Shown here piece after piece: positions 142 through 47,892 of a stretch of 64,000 bases of DNA. How positions within the stretch are numbered: position 1 is the stretch's first letter; the number at the start of each line of letters is the position of its first letter. The position numbers and the translations under genes are program-made. The stretch comes from an uncultured bacterium (lineage in GTDB: Bacteria > Desulfobacterota > Deferrimicrobia > Deferrimicrobiales > Deferrimicrobiaceae). The notes beneath the pieces were generated by a model that had not been told where the DNA came from, ran no database searches, and was given only the letters and a program-made list of their open reading frames with translations. The stretch lies in contig CAWHIM010000037.1 in the NCBI GenBank assembly GCA_963829245.1, positions 211,862 to 275,861 of the forward strand, read 5' to 3'.

Positions 142-846
142 ATGGAATGCTTTAATTGCGCAAAATGCCCGAGCAACGACAAGGCATGCCGTTCCCCGGC
201 GGGGAAAGGGCCGGGATGGTGCCCTACGACGACGGAGCCGGAGGTCGTCGCCGCCAGCATGGAGAACTACCAGGAGCCGGACGTGATGGAATTTGCGCGC
301 TCCGCATCGATCCAGGAAGCCGAATGCTATGCCGGCAGGGAGGAGCGGCCCTACGTCCTCCACCCCGTCAAGCCCCGGCTGGAGGAGTTGATCGAATTTT
401 CGCGAAGGATGGGGTACAAGCGTCTCGGGATGGCGTTCTGCGCGGGGCTCGCGCACGAAGCCGCGGTCCTCGCGGGGATCCTTGAGGCGCAGGGGTTCGA
501 GATGGTCTCGGTGATCTGCAAGGCCGGCGGGGTGCCGAAGGAGGAGATCGGGATCCGGGACGAAGAGAAGATCCGGATCGGAGAGTTCGAGTCGATGTGC
601 AACCCCATCGCCCAGGCCTTATTCCTGAACCGCGCCAAGACCGATTTCAACATCATGCTGGGGCTGTGCATCGGCCACGACTCGCTCTTCCTCCGCAATA
701 TCGAGGGACTGACGACGGTCTTCGCGGTCAAGGACCGGGTGACGGGGCACAACCCGCTGGCGGCCCTCTACACGTCCAGGTCGTATTATCAAAGGCTGGC
801 GAAGCCGCGTCCAGGGGGTCCCGCGCCCAGGGAAGAAGGCAAGTAG
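142..846 (+). CDS. DUF1847-like Cys-rich metal-binding protein
   Basis: 234-aa ORF. N-terminal CxxC/C cluster (MECFNCAKCPSNDKAC), then AFCAGLAHEA and MLGLCIGHDSLF motifs that I associate with the DUF1847 family. Confidence 0.6.
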   Translation: MECFNCAKCPSNDKACRSPAGKGPGWCPTTTEPEVVAASMENYQEPDVMEFARSASIQEAECYAGREERPYVLHPVKPRLEELIEFSRRMGYKRLGMAFCAGLAHEAAVLAGILEAQGFEMVSVICKAGGVPKEEIGIRDEEKIRIGEFESMCNPIAQALFLNRAKTDFNIMLGLCIGHDSLFLRNIEGLTTVFAVKDRVTGHNPLAALYTSRSYYQRLAKPRPGGPAPREEGK

Positions 847-8179: not shown

Positions 8180-8731
8180 TCACTTCCCCAACCAGGTCGC
8201 GACCACCCGGGGAAGCGCCTCCTCGGCCCGCCCCTGGATTTCCTCCTCGGTCAGGGTGCTGAGCGGGTGCCGGATCACCACGGGATTCAACCCCTCCATG
8301 CCCAACGCGGCGCGTTGCACGTGGGCCTCGTGGAGGAACTCGGATGTCACGATCACCGCCGTGGGAACGCCAAGCGATTCCAGGCCGATACTGTCATGCA
8401 TACAGCATGACGTGCACGAACCTCAATCGCCGATCGCGGTCAGGGCGACGTCGCTCCCCGCCGCGATCCGCCGGATCAGTTCATCGTCGGCAAACCGGGA
8501 GAAGCTCTCCTTGCAGTAATAGTTGACTTCCGCAAATGCGAATTTCTGCTGGAGCAGGTCCCGGGTTCGCCGGAGGAGCTTGTTGGCGTTCCACTTCGTA
8601 TTGTCCAGGATCCCAAGCCGCAATCCGTTCAGGTCCCTCACTCGCGGCGCGACGGGCCTGGATTCCACCTCCACTACCCCCCGAGGGTCGTAGACCGGTA
8701 TGTGTTTTCCGCCTGTATTTCCCTGCTGCAT
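8180..8731 (-). CDS. UGSC-family selenoprotein (183 aa, Sec at codon 103 encoded by in-frame TGA 8425..8423)
   Basis: ORFs 8731->8423 and 8401->8180 share one frame and are separated only by TGA. Read-through gives ...DVALTAIGD-U-GSCTSCCMHDSIGLESLGVPT... A SECIS-like hairpin starts 11 nt downstream. Confidence 0.7.
8393..8411 (-). promoter_or_regulatory. putative bacterial SECIS hairpin for the UGSC gene
   Basis: On the mRNA: UGA + 11 nt spacer + GUCAUGC-UGUAU-GCAUGAC. This is a perfect 7-bp stem with a 5-nt loop containing GU. Confidence 0.5.
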
Positions 8732-8776: not shown

Positions 8777-9874
8777 TTAGAGCAGACAGGTGCCGTCGGC
8801 GCAGCCGGGACCCTGCTGCGTTCCCGGACCGCCCGCGGGGGCTTCGACGAGGCGCAGTACCGGAGTGGACATGTGTCCCCACCCGGGGATGAAGGCGGAA
8901 AAACGTCCCGCACCGCCTCCCGCCACGAAAAGGTGGATGTTCTCCGGACTCGGGACGATGGGTATGCGTGCGTCGGGATCCCGCCTGTACCAGCGGGGAA
9001 GGTTGCGATTGTACACCTTCCCGTACCGGTGTTGGAAGGCGAGTTCCCCGAAGGCGTTTCCCGAATACATCCACAGGTACGACTTGACGTCGTTGCGGTT
9101 CCACCCGCACTTGGCGATGGTGGCCGCGTGCTCCGGGCCCAACACGACGACGCAGTGCCCCTGGCTCACCGCCGTATTGTGGGCGATAGTACTCATCGCG
9201 GAGCACATGCTGTCCAGGATGCCCTCCGGGTCGTTGGAGACGTGGTTCACGACGCAGTGGGGCGCCTCGGCGGCGAACACGAACACCGTGGAGTCTTCGG
9301 CCCGGTATCCCTTCTCGACGTGGTAAGGGGCGAAGGGGCTCACCTCCTCGTTCTCGGCGATGGCGTACGTGTATTTCCCCGGGTGTCCGAGGGTGCTCTT
9401 GTCGAGATCTCCCGGCCAGCCGCCTCCGACGTTCAGCATGACGAGGCGGATGGCCCTGCCGATGGTCGCGTTGGCGCGGTTTCCCGATCCGAAGACGTTG
9501 CAGCCCGCGTTCATCCCGATCCGTTTCGCGACCGGCCCGTTCACGACGAGAAGGGGACAGGCGACGTGCGTCGTCGCCTGCACCCCGTTCAGGTTGAACG
9601 CGGTCTCGCACAGCGCGAGCAGCGCCGCACGGACTACGGAGCCATACTCGGGCCTGCATCCCGCCATGACCATGTTCACCGCCAGCACCTGCCGGGTCAA
9701 GCCTCCCCACCGCGGGGGCACCCGGCATTCGAGGTGCGCCGGGTCGCCTCCCAGCGCATCGACCGCGGCGTCGATCTTCTCCTGCGTCGGAGGCATGACC
9801 GGCAAACCGTCGGTGTACCCCTGCTCGAAATACCACTCGACCAGATCGGTCCCTTCGGGGACTTGTGCGTCCAT
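8777..9874 (-). CDS. conserved hypothetical protein (365 aa), co-oriented with the UGSC gene
   Basis: Long ORF with coding-like composition and a tight 45-nt spacing to the UGSC gene. I recognise no family motif (contains YTDGLPVMPPT, NLNGVQATTH, GSGNRANATIGRA). Confidence 0.65.
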   Translation of the reverse strand: MDAQVPEGTDLVEWYFEQGYTDGLPVMPPTQEKIDAAVDALGGDPAHLECRVPPRWGGLTRQVLAVNMVMAGCRPEYGSVVRAALLALCETAFNLNGVQATTHVACPLLVVNGPVAKRIGMNAGCNVFGSGNRANATIGRAIRLVMLNVGGGWPGDLDKSTLGHPGKYTYAIAENEEVSPFAPYHVEKGYRAEDSTVFVFAAEAPHCVVNHVSNDPEGILDSMCSAMSTIAHNTAVSQGHCVVVLGPEHAATIAKCGWNRNDVKSYLWMYSGNAFGELAFQHRYGKVYNRNLPRWYRRDPDARIPIVPSPENIHLFVAGGGAGRFSAFIPGWGHMSTPVLRLVEAPAGGPGTQQGPGCADGTCLL

Positions 9875-25407: not shown

Positions 25408-26775
25408 ATGAAAACATGCGGGACACGTGTTCCTTTCATCCTTTCTTCCGTCCTCCTGGGAGTCCTTCTGCTGACCGGTTGTGGAGGCGGCGGCGAAGGC
25501 CAGTCCAGTTCTTCGGAAAGCGGAACTGCCGGGCAACTTGCGGCGGTCCGCGCAACTTCCAAAGCGTCCTATCTGGTGGTGGCGTGGAACGACCTCGGCA
25601 TGCACTGCCTGAACCCGGAGTACGACACGGCAGTGATCCTTCCTCCCTATAACACGCTCTGGGCGCAGGTCATCCAGCGCAGCAACCCACCGAAACTGGT
25701 GACCTCCGGGATCACCGTGGAGTACCGGGTCGTGAACAACACTTACTCTTACGGGAAGCGATCCTATGGCGGCTTCTGGAATTACGCCCTGAAGCTGTTC
25801 GGGGTCAGCCTCCAGCGCGACACGGGTCTGAACCTGGACGATCCTCAGGTGCAAAACGGCCTTTCCGGGACGATGCTCGCCAAAGGGGACCATTTCCAGG
25901 CCAGCGGCATCCCCGTGACCCCGGTGTCGGACAACAACAGCTGGAACCCATACCAGGTGGCGGAGATCACGGTGAAGGACCGAACGGGGAATGTCGTGGC
26001 GAAGACGCGGACGACGATCCCCACCTCCGATGAGATCAACTGCGCGAAGTGCCACGGCTCCACCCCATTCCAGGACATCCTCGCCAAGCACGACGCCATG
26101 CACGGCACTTCGCTTGTCAACCAGAAGCCGGTCCTGTGCGCGAGTTGCCACGGGAGCCCCGTCCTCGGCCAAGCGGGTGCCGGCTCCTCGGGGAAGTATC
26201 TCTCCCAGGCGATCCACGGTTCGCACGCTTCGCGGGGGGCGACCTGCTACGATTGCCATCCCGGCAACAACACGCAGTGCAGCAGAAGCCTGGCTCACAC
26301 GGCGCCGGACGGGAACTGCCGGAAGTGCCACGGGACGATGGCGGACGTGGCGTCCTCGGTCTCCACGGGTGCGCGTACGCCATGGCTGGGAGAGCCGGCA
26401 TGCTCCACCTGCCACACCGGCGTGGCCGGAGTGAGCACGGGGACGGCGCTCTATCGTGCTTCCGCGGGGCACGGCGGGATCTATTGCGAGGGTTGCCATG
26501 GAAGCCCGCACGCCATGATCCCTTCCCGCGAGGACTCCGACAATTACCAGGCGATCCAGTACCAGGGCGCGGCGAAAACCCTGGCAAGCTGCGGCGCCTG
26601 CCACTCCGGGTCCCGCGGGGAGCGGGGAAACTTCTTGGAGGAGCATGGTAACGGCAAGACCCCTTCGGCATGCAACGTCTGCCACACGGGGTTCACCAAC
26701 CCTTCACAGGACCGTTGGCCCCACGCGTTCCAGTGGAAGGACCGCAAGGGGGCCGGCACGGTGAGGAACGACTGA
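25408..26775 (+). CDS. octahaem c-type cytochrome lipoprotein
   Basis: Lipobox LLLTGC. Eight CxxCH motifs in the C-terminal 270 aa: CAKCH, CASCH, CYDCH, CRKCH, CSTCH, CEGCH, CGACH, CNVCH. A haem-free N-terminal domain of about 190 aa precedes them. Confidence 0.85.
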   Translation: MKTCGTRVPFILSSVLLGVLLLTGCGGGGEGQSSSSESGTAGQLAAVRATSKASYLVVAWNDLGMHCLNPEYDTAVILPPYNTLWAQVIQRSNPPKLVTSGITVEYRVVNNTYSYGKRSYGGFWNYALKLFGVSLQRDTGLNLDDPQVQNGLSGTMLAKGDHFQASGIPVTPVSDNNSWNPYQVAEITVKDRTGNVVAKTRTTIPTSDEINCAKCHGSTPFQDILAKHDAMHGTSLVNQKPVLCASCHGSPVLGQAGAGSSGKYLSQAIHGSHASRGATCYDCHPGNNTQCSRSLAHTAPDGNCRKCHGTMADVASSVSTGARTPWLGEPACSTCHTGVAGVSTGTALYRASAGHGGIYCEGCHGSPHAMIPSREDSDNYQAIQYQGAAKTLASCGACHSGSRGERGNFLEEHGNGKTPSACNVCHTGFTNPSQDRWPHAFQWKDRKGAGTVRND

Positions 26776-38931: not shown

Positions 38932-39735
38932 CTATTTCATGGCTTTTCCCTTGAAAAAAGTATAAATAAAAGTGCCGTCCTCCTCCGCAGTCCTGTACAA
39001 GTCCCTTATCCCTTTGTTCCAATCTGCCTCTTCCATCATGCCCGAACGTATCGCCTGCTCCTTGACGCCTTCGACCATTGCAATAAATGTTTTTTTCGTA
39101 AATCCCTCGACCAGATCCGGCTTGCTTGAATCAACGTAGATCGTTCGGGGAGATACGCTGATGTCGTCGAAGTTTGAATATTTTAATAATGGGTAAAGCT
39201 GTCTCCCGATCAGTGGATTTCCTCCCATCCCTGCCTGGATGTCGTCCAGGCACCGGATCACCTTTCTCGCGTCTCGACTTTCGGGATGAAAGTACGTGGA
39301 ACCTTGATCGCCTTCGATCACGGTGATCGTTCCCCCCCGTTTCAATACCCTTCGAAGATAGAGCAATGCTTCCAGCGGGTTCGGAAGATGTTCCAGGACG
39401 AAGCAGAGGAATAAATGGTCGAAGCTGTCATCCTCATACGGCAGATGGAAGATGTCGCTTTGACGAAACGTAACGTTCGTGATGCCTTGCGATGAGACAC
39501 GCTCTTTTGCGGCGCGAAGAGATTCCTCCGATACATCGACCGCGGTAAAATTCGCGTTGGGGCTATTACGCGCCAGAATAATCGTTTGCGCTCCAACGCC
39601 GCACCCCGCTTCCAGCACATTGCTTCCTGCCGGATACACTGTATCGGAGTGCAGGATGCCTGCCAGCGTGGTTGCCTGGTCAACCAGTCTAACGCTTTCC
39701 CTTGCCGAGTAACCGTGCACGTAGTTCTTGTTCAT
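38932..39735 (-). CDS. class I SAM-dependent methyltransferase
   Basis: ATG at 39735, in AT-rich DNA. Motif I VLEAGCGVGAQT, plus DHLFLCFVLEHLPNP and LKRGGTITVIE. Confidence 0.85.
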   Translation of the reverse strand: MNKNYVHGYSARESVRLVDQATTLAGILHSDTVYPAGSNVLEAGCGVGAQTIILARNSPNANFTAVDVSEESLRAAKERVSSQGITNVTFRQSDIFHLPYEDDSFDHLFLCFVLEHLPNPLEALLYLRRVLKRGGTITVIEGDQGSTYFHPESRDARKVIRCLDDIQAGMGGNPLIGRQLYPLLKYSNFDDISVSPRTIYVDSSKPDLVEGFTKKTFIAMVEGVKEQAIRSGMMEEADWNKGIRDLYRTAEEDGTFIYTFFKGKAMK

Positions 39736-39764: not shown

Positions 39765-40586
39765 CTACCGGTTCAGCAGGGAGGTCATCCGTTCCAGGTG
39801 TTTCCGTTCTTCCCGGGAGAGCGCCAGGAAAACCTCTCTGGACCGTTCGTCCGCGACGGCCCTCCCCATCTTGATATAACGGTCCAGGGCGTTCGCCTCC
39901 ATCGCGATGGAGAGTTCGAGGATCTCCTCCAGCGTCTTTCCTTTGGCCCACGCCAGCGTCTCTTTCAGCGGAGCTCCTCCCTCCAGAAATTCACCTGCCT
40001 CCATCCCTTCCAGGTGCGCGGGGTTTCCGCCCTTTCCGGAGACCCGGGCGTGAAGTTCACGGAGGGTTTCCTTGTGCCGCTCCTCCGCCTGGCCCATCGA
40101 CCGGAAGATCGAAGCGGCTTCCTCCTCTTTCAGGTCCTGGGAAATGCGCTCATAGAAGACGCGGTTCCCCTCCTCGAGAGCGAAGGATAGCGAAACCAGC
40201 TCTTCGGCCCGTGACGCCCGGGAGAAGTACGCAAGGCCTGCTTCATAAATCCCTTCCGCCACGACGCCGTTCCAGGCATCTATCCCTCCCGCCATGCTGT
40301 GTACCTGCGAAAAGCCGGCCTCCGAAAGCGTTGCCGCAGCGGCACGGCTGCGGACCCCGGCCTTTCAATAGGTGATGGTCGGCTTGGACCGGTCGAGGTC
40401 GCCGAGGCGATCCGTCAGCTCCGCCATCGGAATGAGCCGGGCTCCCGGAAGATGCCCGCTTTCGTACTCTCCCGGTTGTCGCACATCGACGAGATTGTAG
40501 GATTCGGCACTCTTTTCCCGAAGGAAAGCGCGGACCTCCCCGGCGGTCCATGTGGAAACGGGTTTGAAATAGTCGAAGATTCCCAA
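39765..40586 (-). CDS. selenocysteine-containing rhodanese fused to a ferritin/rubrerythrin-like di-iron domain (273 aa, Sec at codon 74, TGA 40367..40365)
   Basis: ORFs 40586->40365 and 40295->39765 are in frame. Read-through gives ...SKPTITY-U-KAGVRSRAAAATLSEAGFSQVHSMAGGIDAW, so the rhodanese active-site loop C-[RK]-x-G-x-R-[ST] has Cys replaced by TGA. The C-terminal domain has E...EERH...E...EERKH ligand spacing. Confidence 0.7.
40334..40353 (-). promoter_or_regulatory. putative bacterial SECIS hairpin for the rhodanese gene
   Basis: UGA + 11 nt + CCGCAGC-CGUGCC-GCUGCGG: a perfect 7-bp stem with a 6-nt loop containing GU. Confidence 0.5.
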
Positions 40587-40613
40587 GGCAAGCCCTCCTT
40601 CCTCCGGTTTCGT

Positions 40614-41748
40614 TCATTCCTCCCGCGATTCGCGGAGTTCTCCGGATACCTGGAATTTTCGCATGAATCTCAAGTCGAGGTAGTTCTTCAAGCGGAAGGC
40701 AAGCCGACCGCTCCAGACGATCTCTTTCCGCCGGAAAAGGCCCCTGCGATCTCCCAGGTTCAAGATCAGGAGATAGTCGCCCCCGGGATCGAATCGTTGA
40801 AGAGGCCTCCCGTCGAGAAACGCCGAAAGGTTTTGGTGGAGGGGGCGGTTCTGGCGCACGGCATAGACGCCGACCCGGGCCAGGGGGGATCCCGCCAGGG
40901 AGATGCAATCGCCGCCCCCGAACAGTTCAGGGTGGTCCACGCACTGCAGGTAATCGTTGACCAGCAGCCCCCCGTCCTCTCCCGTTGGAAGGCCCGAATT
41001 CCGAAAGAGCGGTGACGGGCTGATCCCGGTCGCGACGAACACCATGTCTCCCTCGAGAATCGCGCCGTTTTCCAACCGGATCCCTCCGTTGGCAATCGAT
41101 TCCGCGGAAACCCCCTCGATCGATTCGACCCCCCACCGGGCGAGGGCTCCTCGTGCCAGCGTACGCGCCTTCTCGGGGAAATCGCCAAGCACGTTCGACC
41201 GGGATACGAGAGTGATCCTTCCGATCCTGTCCGTTTCCTTCGCAAGATGCCCCAGATTTGCGGCAATTTCGACGGCCGCGGATCCTCCGCCCAGCACGAT
41301 GACGCGGATCCTCTTTCCGGCGTGGGCTTCCAGTATCTTCCTTCGCGCGGCAAGGATGTTCTCGATCGGCTTGACGGGAAAAACGTTATCGCCGGAGGGA
41401 TGGAGGAGATCCAATGGGACCGCGCTCCCCGTGTTGAAGGAGGCGGCATCGTACCGGACCTCGGATCCCGAACCGAGAACCAGGGCGCGCCGGACGGGAT
41501 CCACCAGGACCACGCGATCCTCGATGAACGTTGCCCCCCGGTCTTGCGCCATCTTTTTCACGTGGAAGCGGGCCTCGGCGGGCCGGTATATGCCCGGAGA
41601 GCAGGCCGGGACCCATTCCCGAATAGTAGTGATACGGGGAAGGGCCGATCAACGTGACGCGGTGCCCGGCCCGCACGGTATCCCGCAGGTTTGTCAGCGC
41701 CGTAAGGTGGGCGTGGCCGCCGCCCACGAATACCAAGTGCTTCGGCAT
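40614..41748 (-). pseudogene. FAD-dependent pyridine-nucleotide-disulfide oxidoreductase with one frameshift near 41585-41596
   Basis: The N-terminal part reads MPKHLVFVGGGHAHLTAL...RVTLIGPSPYHYYSGMGPGLLSGH in one frame. The continuation YRPAEARFHVKKMAQDRGATFIEDRVVLVD...VIVLGGGSAAVEIA...GGGDC is in another. Confidence 0.75.
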
Positions 41749-43329: not shown

Positions 43330-45054
43330 TTACGGAGACGAGGAACACCCCGGGGTCGAGGAACCCGCGGGATGGGTGGGGCGGGCCGCCTGTTCCGGCA
43401 CCGCCGTCTTCACGGGGTTGAACTGCTTCCACGTCGTGTAGCCGCCGCTCAGGTTCCATGCGCGGAACCCTCGCTGCCTCAGGATCCGTTCCGCGATATA
43501 TCCCCGGATGCCGACGGCGCAGTAGACGACGATGTCGCGGTCCCGCGGGAGCTCGGAGAGGCGCTCACGGATCTTCCCCAGCGGCATGAGCCTGGAGCCG
43601 GGAAGCGCGCCTGCTTTATGTTCCGCCGGCTCGCGGACATCGAGCAACAGGGAGTCCTGTGGAAGAGCGTCCGCATGGACCACCTGAGTTTCGCCGCGCA
43701 GAACGTTGGACGCCACGAACCCGGCGAAGTTGATCGGATCCTTGGCGGAACCGTACGGGGGAGCGTAGGCAAGTTCCAATTCCTGAAGGTCGTACACGGT
43801 CAACCCGGCCTGCATTGCGGTGGCGAGCACGTCGATCCGCTTGTCCACGCCGTCACGCCCGACGATCTGGGCGCCGAGGATCCGCCCTTCCCGCGTGAAC
43901 AGCAGCTTGAGATGCATCATCCGCGCGCCCGGATAATAAGTGGCGTGCGAATATGGATGGAGGTATGCCTTTACGTGCGCCACGCCCGCCTTCCGGAGAG
44001 CCTTTTCCGTCGCGCCGGTGCAGGCTGCCGTCATATCGAACACCTTGACCACAGAGGTGCCGAACGTGGTTTTGTACTCCCGCTCCGCGCCGAAGACGTT
44101 GTCGGCCGAGATTCGCCCCTGGCGGTTCGCCGGGCCGGCAAGAGGGATTTGGGACGAAAGGCCGAGAGCGTCCGTAACCTGGATGGCGTCGCCGATCGCG
44201 TAAATATCCGGGTGGCTTGTCTGCAGGCGGGTGTTGACGACGATTCCTCCCCGCTCTCCGATCGCAAGGCCGGCCGATTTCGCCAGGGACGTGTTCGGCC
44301 GGACGCCGATGGCAAAAACGACGAGATCCGCGGGGAGTTCCCTCCCGTCGCCAAGTCCGACGACGACCTCCGGAGTTCCGGAACCGTCCCGTTCCGCGAG
44401 GCGGCGAACGGCCGTCACCGTGCTCCCGAGCAGCACCTTGACGCCGTTTCGCTCCAGCTCCGCGATCAAAGGTTGCGCCATCTCGGGGTCCAGCGGAGGC
44501 ATGACCTGCGGCAGCATCTCCACCAGTGTCACTTCGACATTGCGCAGGCGAAGGTTCTCGGCCAGCTCCAGCCCCAGAAACCCGCCCCCCACCACGACGG
44601 CGCGTTGTATGCCGGCATCCACCCGCGCCTTGATCCGGTCCATGTCCGGCATCGTCCATAACATCATGACCGCCGGGTCGTCCGCCCCCGGGACATCGGG
44701 TCGGATCGGGCTTGCGCCAGTGGAGAGGATCAGCTTGTCGTAGCTTTCCGTGTACGTATTGCCTGTCGCCCGGTCCAGGATGGAGAGCGTGTGGGCCGCG
44801 GGCTCTACGGCTGTGACCTCGTGGCGTGTGCGCACATCCACGCCGGTTCGCGCATTGAACCGTTCCGGTGTCATGACCAGCAGGCTGTTGCGCCTTGGAA
44901 TGGCCCCACCCACGTGATACGGCAGGCCGCAGTTGGCAAACGATACGTACTCGCCCCGCTCGAACAGGACGATCTCCGCGGTTTCGTCCAGACGGCGCGC
45001 TCTTGCCGCAGCGCTGGCTCCCCCCGCCACTCCGCCGATGATGGCAACTTTCAT
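43330..45054 (-). CDS. CoA-disulfide reductase / NADH-dependent persulfide reductase with C-terminal rhodanese domain
   Basis: ATG 45054. MKVAIIGGVAGGASAAARARRL, redox Cys in SFANCGLPY, a second Rossmann motif VVVGGGFLGLELA, and a C-terminal rhodanese loop VVYCAVGIRG. Confidence 0.85.
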   Translation of the reverse strand: MKVAIIGGVAGGASAAARARRLDETAEIVLFERGEYVSFANCGLPYHVGGAIPRRNSLLVMTPERFNARTGVDVRTRHEVTAVEPAAHTLSILDRATGNTYTESYDKLILSTGASPIRPDVPGADDPAVMMLWTMPDMDRIKARVDAGIQRAVVVGGGFLGLELAENLRLRNVEVTLVEMLPQVMPPLDPEMAQPLIAELERNGVKVLLGSTVTAVRRLAERDGSGTPEVVVGLGDGRELPADLVVFAIGVRPNTSLAKSAGLAIGERGGIVVNTRLQTSHPDIYAIGDAIQVTDALGLSSQIPLAGPANRQGRISADNVFGAEREYKTTFGTSVVKVFDMTAACTGATEKALRKAGVAHVKAYLHPYSHATYYPGARMMHLKLLFTREGRILGAQIVGRDGVDKRIDVLATAMQAGLTVYDLQELELAYAPPYGSAKDPINFAGFVASNVLRGETQVVHADALPQDSLLLDVREPAEHKAGALPGSRLMPLGKIRERLSELPRDRDIVVYCAVGIRGYIAERILRQRGFRAWNLSGGYTTWKQFNPVKTAVPEQAARPTHPAGSSTPGCSSSP

Positions 45055-45701: not shown

Positions 45702-46412
45702 ATGAAAGAGACAAGGTGCCCTTTTCTGGAAACGAAAACCGTGACGTTCTGCAAGGCGTTCCCGTCGAAGATGATCCCGGTGAACCGGCTGTCCTCCTCG
45801 GGAGGCCTCTGCAACTCCTGCAACTTCGAGGAGTGCTCCCTGTACTGCGAGGTCCGGGGTGGCGGCATGGGGATGGAGCACGTTCGCGGATTCCATCTCA
45901 AGTCCGAGTACTACTACCACCCCAAGCACTTGTGGGTCGCCCCGTACGACGGAGAAGAGGGCGAGGCCCGGGTGGGGATCGACGACTTTTCGTCCCGGCT
46001 GATCGGAAGGGTCGACCGCGCATCGGTGCCCGCCGTCGGCGTGGCGGTGAAAGAGAACCACGTCTGCTTCCTCCTCCACTCCGGCCCGCGGACCGTCCAC
46101 CTGGTTTCACCCGCCGACGGGGTCATCAAGGCCGTCAACCCGAAGGTTGCCGCGGATCCCTCCATCCTCAACGACGATCCGTACTCCGAAGGCTGGATCT
46201 TCTCCATGCGGCTCAAAGGGGACGCGGTGAAGGGGTTGTACCACGAGAACGTCGCCCGGAAGTGGTTCGAAAGCGAGGTCGAACGGTTGCAGCGGGTCTT
46301 CTCTTCCGATTTGGGGATGCTGGCGACGGACGGGGGGGAGGCGCTCACGGATATCAGCAGCCGGTTGAACGACGCGCAATGGGGAAAGATCGTCAGTCAA
46401 TTTCTAGGGTAA
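45702..46412 (+). CDS. GcvH-like (glycine-cleavage H-fold) protein with Cys-rich N-terminus, no lipoyl-lysine
   Basis: N-terminus CPFLETKTVTFC...LCNSCNFEECSLYC. H-fold block HLWV...ARVGIDDFSSRLIGRVDRASVPAVG...VSPADGVIKAVNPKV..DP..NDDPYSEGWIF. The position of the ESVK lysine reads HSGP. Confidence 0.7.
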   Translation: MKETRCPFLETKTVTFCKAFPSKMIPVNRLSSSGGLCNSCNFEECSLYCEVRGGGMGMEHVRGFHLKSEYYYHPKHLWVAPYDGEEGEARVGIDDFSSRLIGRVDRASVPAVGVAVKENHVCFLLHSGPRTVHLVSPADGVIKAVNPKVAADPSILNDDPYSEGWIFSMRLKGDAVKGLYHENVARKWFESEVERLQRVFSSDLGMLATDGGEALTDISSRLNDAQWGKIVSQFLG

Positions 46413-46428
46413 GAGCAGGAGGTGCGCC

Positions 46429-47106
46429 ATGGTAGTCCTTCTCGTCGCAATCACGGTTCTCGCATGCATCGGGGTGGATCTGGCGCTCCGGCGGAGGGAA
46501 AAGGCGGCGGCGGAAGCCCGGTCCGTCGTCCGGGAGCCGGCCGCGCTGTTCCCTTCCCATGCGGCCCAGGAACTTCCCGGCGGCCTGTTCGTCCACGGCG
46601 GCCACACCTGGGCGAAGCTCGATTCCTCCGGCTCCGTACAGGTGGGCCTGGACGGTTTCGCGCAGGGAATCCTCGGAAGGGTCGACCGGTTCGAGCTTCC
46701 CGCGGACGGGGCGACGCTTCGCCAGGGCGAGCCGGCGTTCGCCGCCCTCCAGTCGGGCAAGCGGATCGAGTTCGTGTCCCCCGTCGACGGCGTCGTTTGC
46801 GCGGTGAATGAACGGATCAACGTCGACCCGGCGGCGGCGCGGAAGGAGCCCTACGAGAAGGGATGGGCGTTCATGCTCCGGCCGTCCAACCTCTCCCGGG
46901 ACCTGAAGAAGCTCCGGATCGGCGCGGAAGCCGCGGCGTGGCTGGAAAGGGAAGCCAGGAGTTTCACCGAGTTCCTCTCCCTGCACCGGGCGGTGCCCGC
47001 GGAAGTGGGGGCCACCCTGGCGGACGGAGGGATTCATGCCGAGGGAATCATGGAGACGATGGACGGAGAGATCCTGCAGATCGCGATCCGGAAATATTTT
47101 CGCTGA
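46429..47106 (+). CDS. membrane-anchored GcvH-like protein (paralog 2)
   Basis: AGGAGG before the ATG. N-terminal TM helix MVVLLVAITVLACIGV. H-fold block GHTWAKL...VQVGLDGFAQGILGRVDRFELPADG...VSPVDGVVCAVNERI...EPYEKGWAF. Confidence 0.7.
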   Translation: MVVLLVAITVLACIGVDLALRRREKAAAEARSVVREPAALFPSHAAQELPGGLFVHGGHTWAKLDSSGSVQVGLDGFAQGILGRVDRFELPADGATLRQGEPAFAALQSGKRIEFVSPVDGVVCAVNERINVDPAAARKEPYEKGWAFMLRPSNLSRDLKKLRIGAEAAAWLEREARSFTEFLSLHRAVPAEVGATLADGGIHAEGIMETMDGEILQIAIRKYFR

Positions 47107-47181
47107 CGTCGGATGCCCGTGTTCGGCGAGGCGCATGAGGGTCGTAGAGGAAGAAACGGCGGAAGACGCGGAGGTAGTGAG

Positions 47182-47892
47182 ATGGAAGGATTCAGCCTCG
47201 TAGACATCTATTCGACGAAGGGGATCGAATACCTGATCGCCACGGTATTCTTCTTCGGGTTCCTGGCCCTGCAGCGGTACATCCTGACGTCCGCTCCAGG
47301 GCGGGGAAAGAACCGGGATTGGCATGCCGGGCTTCCGTCCTGGTTCCGCGTTCCCGAGGGGTACGGCTTTCACCAGGGGCATACCTGGATGAAGGTGGAC
47401 CTTCTGAGCCCCGGCCGCCGGAGGTTGGTGAAGGTCGGGCTGGACGACTTCGCGCAGAAGCTCATCGGCAAGGTGGATGCCGTCGTGCTCCCCGCCGTCG
47501 GCTCCCGCCTGACGCAGGGGGACAAGGGGTGGAGCCTCATGGTCGATTCCGAGGCCATCCCGATGCTGTCGCCGGTGGATGGCGAGGTCGTGGCGGTGAA
47601 CCAGGCGGTTCTCCGGTCCCCCGGGATCCTGAGTCGGGATCCGTACGGGGAGGGCTGGCTGCTCAAGGTGAAATCCGACAGGATCGCGGCGGACAGCCGG
47701 AACCTGTTATCGGGGAAGGTGGCCCGGGCCTGGATGGAGACCTCGCTGGAAAACCTCCACCCGACCCGCCACGAAACCCTGGGGCCGGTGATGCAGGACG
47801 GCGGTCTGCCGCTGGAAGGGATCGCGCGGATCCTTGGCGGCGACCAATGGGCGGATCTGGCGAAGACGCATCTGCTGACGGACGTGGAGTAA
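47182..47892 (+). CDS. membrane-anchored GcvH-like protein (paralog 3)
   Basis: GGAGGT before ATG 47182. TM helix IEYLIATVFFFGFLAL. H-fold block GHTWMKV...VKVGLDDFAQKLIGKVDAVVLPAVG...LSPVDGEVVAVNQAV...DPYGEGWLLKV. The lysine position reads DS. Confidence 0.7.
   Translation: MEGFSLVDIYSTKGIEYLIATVFFFGFLALQRYILTSAPGRGKNRDWHAGLPSWFRVPEGYGFHQGHTWMKVDLLSPGRRRLVKVGLDDFAQKLIGKVDAVVLPAVGSRLTQGDKGWSLMVDSEAIPMLSPVDGEVVAVNQAVLRSPGILSRDPYGEGWLLKVKSDRIAADSRNLLSGKVARAWMETSLENLHPTRHETLGPVMQDGGLPLEGIARILGGDQWADLAKTHLLTDVE

Follow-up and report, generated by a model that had tools for sequence, protein, structure and literature searches.

The DNA analyzed here, referred to below as the window, is the whole stretch of 64,000 nucleotides between positions 211,862 and 275,861 of contig CAWHIM010000037.1 (assembly GCA_963829245.1), from an uncultured bacterium of the Deferrimicrobiaceae. 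Its minus strand carries a gene in which a rhodanese domain is joined to a ferritin-like, predicted di-iron domain, and in which the reading frame is interrupted by a TGA at codon 74; a flavoprotein gene lies directly upstream and a methyltransferase gene directly downstream (Table 1). The region is most probably one gene for a 273-residue selenoprotein whose UGA is decoded as selenocysteine (Sec), a reading to which we assign a probability of about 0.85 on comparative sequence grounds; the figure refers to the identity of the gene and its decoding, and not to its function.

An earlier note on this DNA had joined two open reading frames (ORFs), 40586→40365 and 40295→39765, into one frame with the TGA at 40367..40365 as the sole interruption. 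Translation bears this out, as the frame running from 40625 to 39765 holds a single internal stop (...DRSKPTITY*KAGVRSRAAAATLSEAGF...), and all coordinates and sequence statements of that note proved correct. The TTG start of the window gene aligns with ATG in two relatives (L001 and L004), and the gene is collinear with Cys homologues of 270-283 aa.

Table 1. Positions of the predicted selenoprotein gene, its parts, and the other genes discussed (SECIS, selenocysteine insertion sequence; FAD, flavin adenine dinucleotide; SAM, S-adenosylmethionine).
Feature	Position	Strand	Details
Predicted selenoprotein gene	39765..40586	-	273 codons plus stop; TTG 40586..40584 to TAG 39767..39765; probable Sec codon 74
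Shine-Dalgarno-like GGAGGAAGGAGGG	40593..40605	-	5' of the TTG start; read from the sequence
UGA codon 74, probably read as Sec	40365..40367	-	Catalytic position of the rhodanese loop U-K-A-G-V-R-S
Predicted minimal bacterial SECIS hairpin	40334..40353	-	5' arm 40353..40347, loop CGUGCC 40346..40341, 3' arm 40340..40334
Extended stem-loop	40305..40370	-	UGA in lower helix (GAAAGG/CUUUC-type pairing); minimum-free-energy fold, less certain than the apical hairpin
Rhodanese domain, residues 22-106	40269..40523	-	PF00581, E = 2.4e-20, 73 bits vs. cut-off 22
Rubrerythrin-type (erythrin-like) ferritin-like di-iron domain (predicted), residues 127-273	39768..40208	-	PF02915, E = 1.8e-12, 48 bits vs. 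cut-off 22.8
FAD/NAD(P)H flavoprotein gene, Pyr_redox_2	40614..41748	-	Stop 27 nt before the selenoprotein start; frame broken in the window
UbiE/Methyltransf_11-type SAM methyltransferase	38932..39735	-	Starts 30 nt past the selenoprotein stop; looks co-transcribed
CoA-disulfide reductase with C-terminal rhodanese fusion	43330..45054 (ORF to 45438)	-	Persulfide-reductase (Npsr/CoADR-RHD) type, about 3 kb upstream
Second selenoprotein gene, UGSC family (NF041046)	8180..8731	-	TGA 8425..8423; 161 bits vs. cut-off 125; motif D-U-G-S-C
Predicted SECIS hairpin of the UGSC gene	about 8411..8393	-	UGA, 11 nt, 7-bp stem GUCAUGC/GCAUGAC, loop UGUAU, G23/U24

A rhodanese and a ferritin-like domain in one chain

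The rhodanese domain belongs to the single-domain sulfurtransferases and has an active-site loop of six residues (U74-K-A-G-V-R-S80), in which G77, R79, and S80 are invariant across an alignment of 41 full-length homologues (alignment A1). Profile matches of this half in the Protein Data Bank (PDB) include 1yt8, 6mxv, GlpE, and the rhodanese domains of coenzyme A-disulfide reductase-rhodanese proteins (CoADR-RHD), of Npsr, and of the persulfide dioxygenase-rhodanese fusions (PRF). An AlphaFold (AF2) model of an 83%-identical Cys form (pLDDT 87, pTM 0.84) has an α/β rhodanese fold followed by four long helices (residues 127-151, 155-183, 219-243, and 247-274), and in a Foldseek comparison with this model GlpE, 3iwh, and 3foj superpose with TM-scores of 0.75-0.86 on the target; the rhodanese domains of CoADR-RHD/Npsr and of PRF are also among its structural neighbours. 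The window protein contains no cysteine, which leaves residue 74 as its sole thiol or selenol.

The C-terminal part had been likened in the earlier note to a four-helix bundle whose E / EERH / E / EERKH spacing fits di-iron ligands. Profile matches, conserved ligands, and the predicted fold agree with this proposal, and the domain does not model as a bundle of the non-metal kind. The ligand candidates, whose numbering in the homologues also holds for the window protein, are E138, E168-x-x-H171, E230, and E260-x-x-H263. Five of these (E138, E168, E230, E260, and H263) do not vary among the 41 homologues, and H171 hardly does; E202 (within an E-G-G motif) and D235 are likewise invariant. The best solved relative in a profile search with the C-terminal region is 1vjx (TM1526, "ferritin-like diiron-carboxylate protein"; E = 9.5e-13), followed by 2fzf (6.6e-10), and further relatives by profile are encapsulated ferritin, symerythrin, and rubrerythrin. 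Since the window protein has no Cys, a rubredoxin-like Fe(Cys)4 domain is absent, and the protein is to be called erythrin-like and not a rubrerythrin proper.

Two short elements lie outside these assignments. An N-terminal peptide, x-x-x-x-D-Y-F-K (residues 1-8; 40565..40586, minus strand), is conserved in the family, and the invariant E-G-G (residues 202-204; 39975..39983, minus strand) is located between helices B and C. Either of them might form a domain interface or supply an extra metal ligand.

Decoding of the UGA codon

The TGA falls exactly at the catalytic Cys of the rhodanese loop (C-x-x-G-x-R-S), where the earlier note had placed it. Cys is aligned to it both in P0001, a full-length homologue of 83% identity (...TITYCRSGVRSR...), and in P0131 (WP_423935130.1, Candidatus Deferrimicrobium sp., 273 aa), and Cys homologues of the window protein reach about 88% identity. 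Aligned with Cys-containing rhodanese-rubrerythrin fusions, the 273-aa product matches over its full length with Cys opposite the TGA, and the homologues read past this position and reach the second domain. In alignment A1, column 74 is Cys in all sequences but one, which has Trp (P0085). Among related genome loci, codon 74 is TGA in 16 of 18, as the single in-frame stop, and TGC in the remaining two; the loci stem from metagenome-assembled genomes (MAGs), namely those of Deferrimicrobiaceae or "Deltaproteobacteria" (70-89% identity), one of Nitrospirae (46%), and one of Syntrophobacterales (41%). Metagenome loci with the motif (n = 58) carry TGA in 37 cases, always as the sole in-frame stop, and TGC or TGT in 21. 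Such an alternation with Cys at codon 74 is the signature of Sec/Cys pairs. On a neighbour-joining tree at least nine Sec/Cys switches are required, and the window sequence lies within a mostly-Sec clade with a Cys form as its nearest neighbour.

The Trp of P0085, a full-length metagenomic sequence (...TIVYWAAGVRSR...), is presumably encoded by TGG, a single mutation away from TGA. This sequence may represent a variant without activity, an error of sequencing, or a called product of read-through.

If the TGA were instead a true stop, arising by nonsense mutation, pseudogenisation, or assembly error, the region would encode a rhodanese fragment of 73 residues and, in a gene of its own, a rubrerythrin-like protein of 176 residues. 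This is how all the public gene calls inspected present the relatives with TGA, which are split into a 73-aa "rhodanese" and a 176-204-aa "rubrerythrin," and at least one probable assembly indel does occur nearby, in the flavoprotein gene. However, over 50 independent sequences, with identities that go down to about 40%, share the identical TGA, the 73-aa product would be without the catalytic loop, and the Cys forms are single uninterrupted ORFs. Moreover, conservation at the protein level extends over the stretch from the TGA to the next ATG. Its 23 codons are under purifying selection and have a lowered pS (synonymous variation), so that the ratio of nonsynonymous to synonymous variation (pN/pS) is 0.46 there, against 0.31 upstream of the TGA and 0.26 downstream of the ATG, and they encode the conserved catalytic loop G-V-R-S-R. 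A true stop can hardly be entertained in the face of these data.

Decoding as Sec also calls for an RNA element, and the earlier note had pointed to a perfect 7-bp hairpin, CCGCAGC-CGUGCC-GCUGCGG, exactly 11 nt after the UGA (40353..40334). The hairpin is present as described, and on inspection as a bacterial SECIS it has canonical geometry and is preferentially retained in TGA forms. The minimal element of E. coli fdhF has a matching 11-nt spacer and matching G23/U24 loop bases. Numbered from the U of UGA, the stem of the window hairpin pairs positions 15-21 with 28-34 around the loop C22-G23-U24-G25-C26-C27, and 18 nt separate the UGA from the apical loop. Bacterial SECIS elements have 16-37 nt between these points (PMC10778597), and the spacing, together with the 7-bp stem and the early loop G, therefore gives the hairpin SECIS geometry. 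The hairpin would recruit SelB with Sec-tRNA(Sec) to the ribosome, as for other bacterial selenoprotein mRNAs. A 76-nt stretch folds at -37.7 kcal/mol (z = -2.9 vs. shuffles), and the lower stem of the extended stem-loop differs from clade to clade.

The arrangement is rare in the window. Both strands together contain 1418 TGA triplets, and only six of these are followed, 9-13 nt downstream, by a perfect 7-bp Watson-Crick stem with a G in loop positions 1-2; two of the six, those of the rhodanese gene and of the UGSC gene, are the only in-frame TGAs that have coding sequence on both sides. Across the family, a stem of at least 5 bp in fixed register is found in 46 of 49 Sec forms vs. 4 of 23 Cys forms (Fisher p = 9e-11, a value inflated by the phylogenetic relatedness of the sequences compared). 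Where the same G-x-R-S-R-A/S-A peptide is encoded, the stem is present in 41/43 Sec forms vs. 3/10 Cys forms, and at the Ala codon whose third base pairs with A19 the Cys forms typically have GCG or GCC, not GCU. In the 46 distinct ungapped Sec-form hairpins G23 is invariant, nucleotide 24 is U or G only, and pairs 17-21/28-32 are essentially always formed. Distant Sec forms have the hairpins GCAGCC-GGUC-GGCUGC or GCGAAGCC-GUGU-GGCUUCGC.

Besides the inflated p value, several points weigh against decoding as Sec. Covariation in the 46 Sec-form hairpins is slight, since the core 5 bp hardly vary and a single compensatory change is seen, at pair 18-31; the core pairs being near-invariant, covariation lends little support, and more weight is placed on how Sec forms differ from Cys forms at synonymous sites. 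The stem lies within codons of a conserved peptide, and the conservation of the hairpin is for this reason partly due to the protein. Three Cys forms (L003:867-1697, L108:2893-3717, and L120:3001-3819) keep the hairpin, which in L003 is identical to that of the window; these are possibly "fossil" SECIS elements left by recent conversion from Sec to Cys. Finally, selA, selB, selC, and selD were not found within the 64-kb window. A tRNA scan of the window gave no tRNA, and hence no tRNA-Sec. Against Rfam, the whole window gave no match at gathering thresholds, and at permissive E-values the region 40280-40400 gave only a sub-threshold chance match of the long hairpin to a microRNA model (20.7 bits vs. 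70); as Rfam holds no bacterial SECIS model that fits, this outcome does not count against the hairpin.

The organism itself very probably decodes Sec, judging from the second selenoprotein gene in the window, which belongs to the UGSC family and whose hairpin has the same geometry as that of the rhodanese selenoprotein gene. This bears on a further explanation, in which the UGA is read without selenium, by a near-cognate Trp or Cys tRNA or under a variant code, and the hairpin merely stimulates read-through. One homologue, P0085, does have Trp at column 74, and Sec machinery was not seen within the window; but TGA alternates with Cys codons, the hairpin has SECIS spacing and loop features, and UGSC is a curated selenoprotein family that occurs here with the same hairpin geometry. 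In addition, TGA terminates ordinary genes of the window, including the flavoprotein gene directly upstream, which it ends at full profile length. A variant genetic code was ruled out because TGA closes ordinary genes here, and recoding without selenium as a whole is very improbable.

Directly upstream of the UGSC gene lies a 365-aa ORF (8777..9874, minus strand) with no Pfam or NCBIfam match. UGSC proteins are sometimes fused to a conserved domain of no assigned function, according to the Global Ocean Sampling paper (PMC2398784), and this ORF might be that fusion-partner domain.

The family to which the predicted selenoprotein belongs is large. The Cys-form architecture comprises 640 clusters at 50% identity (E ≤ 1e-30); the best 150 of these 640 clusters are mostly two-domain proteins of 270-290 aa, and among these clusters the Sec forms appear as 180-214-aa fragments that start just after position 74. 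The family is common in metagenomes of soil, sediment, and groundwater, and is widespread in anaerobic Desulfobacterota-like and Nitrospirota lineages.

The flavoprotein neighbour and gene context

The gene directly upstream encodes a Pyr_redox_2 flavoprotein. Its intact orthologue in L001 (377 aa) matches TIGR03169 ("Nterm_to_SelD") over the full length of the model (2-365 of 365; E = 1.4e-76) with 258 bits, below the cut-off of 310, and the flavoprotein is on this sequence evidence a close relative of the TIGR03169 family, not a certified member. In related genomes, 14 of 17 loci have this gene directly upstream. Fifty metagenome loci extend at least 400 nt in the upstream direction; in 18 of them it is directly upstream and in two more downstream, and in several phyla it is found beside Sec forms as well as Cys forms. 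Its presence beside Cys forms means that the association need not be selenium-specific. The sub-threshold score and the fact that the flavoprotein is not adjacent in over half of the metagenomic members both speak against building a function on this partnership. Loci without the flavoprotein were checked for other conserved neighbours and gave clade-local synteny only.

One G too many in the run 41595..41593 (minus strand; GGG vs. GG in L001) disrupts the reading frame of the window flavoprotein. The orthologue in L008, another long-read-style MAG, has a frameshift at a different place in the same gene, and for this reason the break is probably an assembly indel, a true pseudogene being the alternative. 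The TGA stop of the window flavoprotein shares its frame with the selenoprotein gene, which is a coincidence, as the two are in different frames in L001.

The SAM methyltransferase gene downstream was considered as a third member of a module, for example in selenium methylation, and was rejected since none of about 80 related loci has it as an immediate neighbour. A scan for promoters and terminators gave nothing usable to define an operon.

Further away, the CoA-disulfide reductase-rhodanese fusion of the window carries Cys (…SFANCGLPY…) and belongs to a family in which some members have Sec (UGxP). Three tandem genes for glycine-cleavage-H-like proteins (PF01597, E about 1e-18) lie at 45702..47892 (plus strand), with differing N-terminal extensions, the first of which is Cys-rich. 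A DUF1847 Cys-rich protein (142..846, plus strand) and a multihaem cytochrome c with MtrC/c7-like repeats (25408..26775, plus strand) fit a metal-reducing anaerobe such as a member of the Deferrimicrobiaceae.

Possible functions and known systems

The earlier note had suggested that persulfide or perselenide chemistry is coupled to an oxidant-handling or iron centre, a coupling that we infer. By analogy with known systems, we tentatively propose that Sec74, the flavoprotein, and the di-iron site may act together on sulfane sulfur or selenium with NAD(P)H as the electron source, a possibility that falls short of even odds. Sec74 would take up a sulfane sulfur or selenium atom as an Se-S(-) or Se-Se(-) adduct, and this atom would be handed on or reduced with electrons from the adjacent NAD(P)H flavoprotein, so that flavoprotein and Sec-rhodanese would resemble a flavoprotein-rhodanese persulfide reductase divided over two proteins. 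The predicted di-iron centre, tethered to the rhodanese, could act as the redox partner, either in the reduction of O2 or H2O2 or in electron exchange with the bound chalcogen. That the best family of the flavoprotein is the oxidoreductase domain fused to SelD suggests a role in the reduction of selenium or sulfur species, and the absence of a resolving Cys favours transfer chemistry or an intermolecular partner.

With the same gene and the same Sec decoding, the protein might instead be a rubrerythrin-like NAD(P)H peroxidase that reduces H2O2 or O2 at the di-iron site. The flavoprotein would then act as an NADH:rubredoxin oxidoreductase, and the Sec-rhodanese would either replace rubredoxin as the relay or be the peroxidatic selenol. 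The relatives of the di-iron domain all fall in the ferroxidase/peroxidase branch (rubrerythrin, symerythrin, encapsulated ferritin, bacterioferritin, and DPS-like proteins), and the host lineages are anaerobic. Rubrerythrin systems combine a redox domain, a di-iron bundle, and a Pyr_redox_2 flavoprotein, and the order in the window mirrors them. Most prokaryotic selenoproteins are, besides, redox or antioxidant enzymes (PMC9312934, PMC13188914). On the other hand, a lone selenol without a resolving Cys would make a poor one-electron relay to the di-iron site, the loop is of the classical six-residue sulfurtransferase type, and no rubredoxin reductase model comes as close to the flavoprotein as the SelD-fused family does; a peroxidase is accordingly a somewhat unlikely candidate.

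A third assignment, again with the same gene and Sec decoding, would make the protein a donor of iron plus sulfur for the building or repair of Fe-S (or Fe-Se) clusters, in which the ferritin-like domain would give iron, the rhodanese Sec sulfane sulfur, and the flavoprotein the reducing equivalents for release. A ferritin-like domain, predicted to bind iron, does share one chain with a sulfur-carrier domain, with a reductase gene next door. Di-iron proteins that repair Fe-S centres exist. However, the relatives of the di-iron domain are catalytic sites and not storage or delivery proteins, no isc, suf, or nif genes for Fe-S assembly recur in the neighbourhoods examined, and the argument is one from architecture alone, which makes such a donor improbable.

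Returning to the handling of sulfane sulfur or selenium, one may go further and regard the Sec/Cys-rhodanese-erythrin and the SelD-type flavoprotein as a previously unrecognised two-gene redox module, in which a di-iron centre would be directly coupled to the perselenide or persulfide that a lone selenol carries; this bolder claim is doubtful. If it were true, the module might mobilise selenium or sulfane sulfur, feeding selenide to SelD or sulfide to biosynthesis, or it might be a new class of rubrerythrin-like peroxidase, with a selenol replacing the rubredoxin iron site. A single chalcogen nucleophile tethered to a predicted di-iron site, often beside a relative of the SelD-type oxidoreductase, is a compact and testable candidate for a system by which anaerobes deal with reactive sulfane sulfur, selenium, or peroxide. 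Through the many switches between Sec and Cys, paired natural variants are at hand for asking what selenium contributes at a rhodanese active site. Hundreds of records would be put right by a family model that allows for Sec.

No new principle is involved, rhodaneses with Sec, decoding through a SECIS, and erythrin domains all being known already. What appears to be new is the di-iron fusion and the flavoprotein partnership, which are undescribed in the searchable literature, the known Sec-rhodanese forms having been compared by description; no account of a rhodanese fused to a rubrerythrin or ferritin-like domain was found in that literature. Sec-rhodaneses with PF00581 and a UxxG motif were first reported in 2004-2005 (Sargasso Sea set, PMC1088965; Olavius symbionts, PMC1976440). 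Sec-containing rhodaneses are also covered in PMC9312934, and a 2026 review gives five forms of rhodanese-like selenoproteins, two of them with UxxG (PMC13188914), in agreement with the earlier note, which had called them known but rare. In the window protein, as in these forms, Sec replaces the catalytic rhodanese Cys (the motif U-K-A-G being a UxxG), Cys homologues exist with dynamic Sec/Cys switching, and the prediction comes from bioinformatics alone. Unlike it, none of forms 1-5 is described with a rubrerythrin or ferritin-like fusion, as compared by description (form 2 = MBM9537886.1, form 4 = MCY3690685.1). The forms of the review also include NF041203 (CxU) and TsoB (NF045694) (PMC13188914). 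The window protein does not reach either curated model (NF041203 rhodanese_LYCAU, 22 vs. 115 bits; TsoB NF045694, 22.8 vs. 805), and it has UxxG where these have CxU or UxxxxU motifs.

With the rubrerythrin/erythrin family the window protein shares the four-helix bundle, the E...ExxH...E...ExxH pattern, and a PF02915 match above cut-off. It differs in having no rubredoxin-like Cys4 domain, its partner domain being a rhodanese, and in adding two invariant elements, E202-G-G in the loop that joins helices B and C, and D235 within helix C. TM1526 (1vjx) and 2fzf, the nearest relatives of its di-iron domain with a solved structure, have no known function.

The closest parallels to the gene pair are found among flavoproteins. 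Ndh-SelD fusions, which join an NADH dehydrogenase-like domain to selenophosphate synthetase, occur in many aquatic bacteria (TIGR03169; PMC2398784), and the best full-length family of the window flavoprotein is their Ndh-type oxidoreductase domain; unlike them, it has no SelD domain. CoADR-RHD, Npsr, and CoA-persulfide reductase (3icr, 3nt6, 8a56, 6pfz) likewise pair a Pyr_redox_2 flavoprotein with a very similar rhodanese domain. In CoADR-RHD and Npsr the two are fused, whereas in the window they are separate polypeptides; further, the window flavoprotein is of a TIGR03169-like subfamily without the active-site Cys context of CoADR, and the window rhodanese carries the predicted Sec and a di-iron domain. 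A precedent for an iron enzyme fused to a rhodanese is provided by the PRF proteins (5ve3-5ve5), whose rhodanese domains are 35-40% identical and in which the metal site uses or produces a persulfide carried by the rhodanese Cys. The dioxygenase of PRF has a beta-lactamase fold and mononuclear iron, its hosts are aerobes, and it has no Sec, whereas the window protein joins its rhodanese, with probable Sec, to a predicted di-iron bundle.

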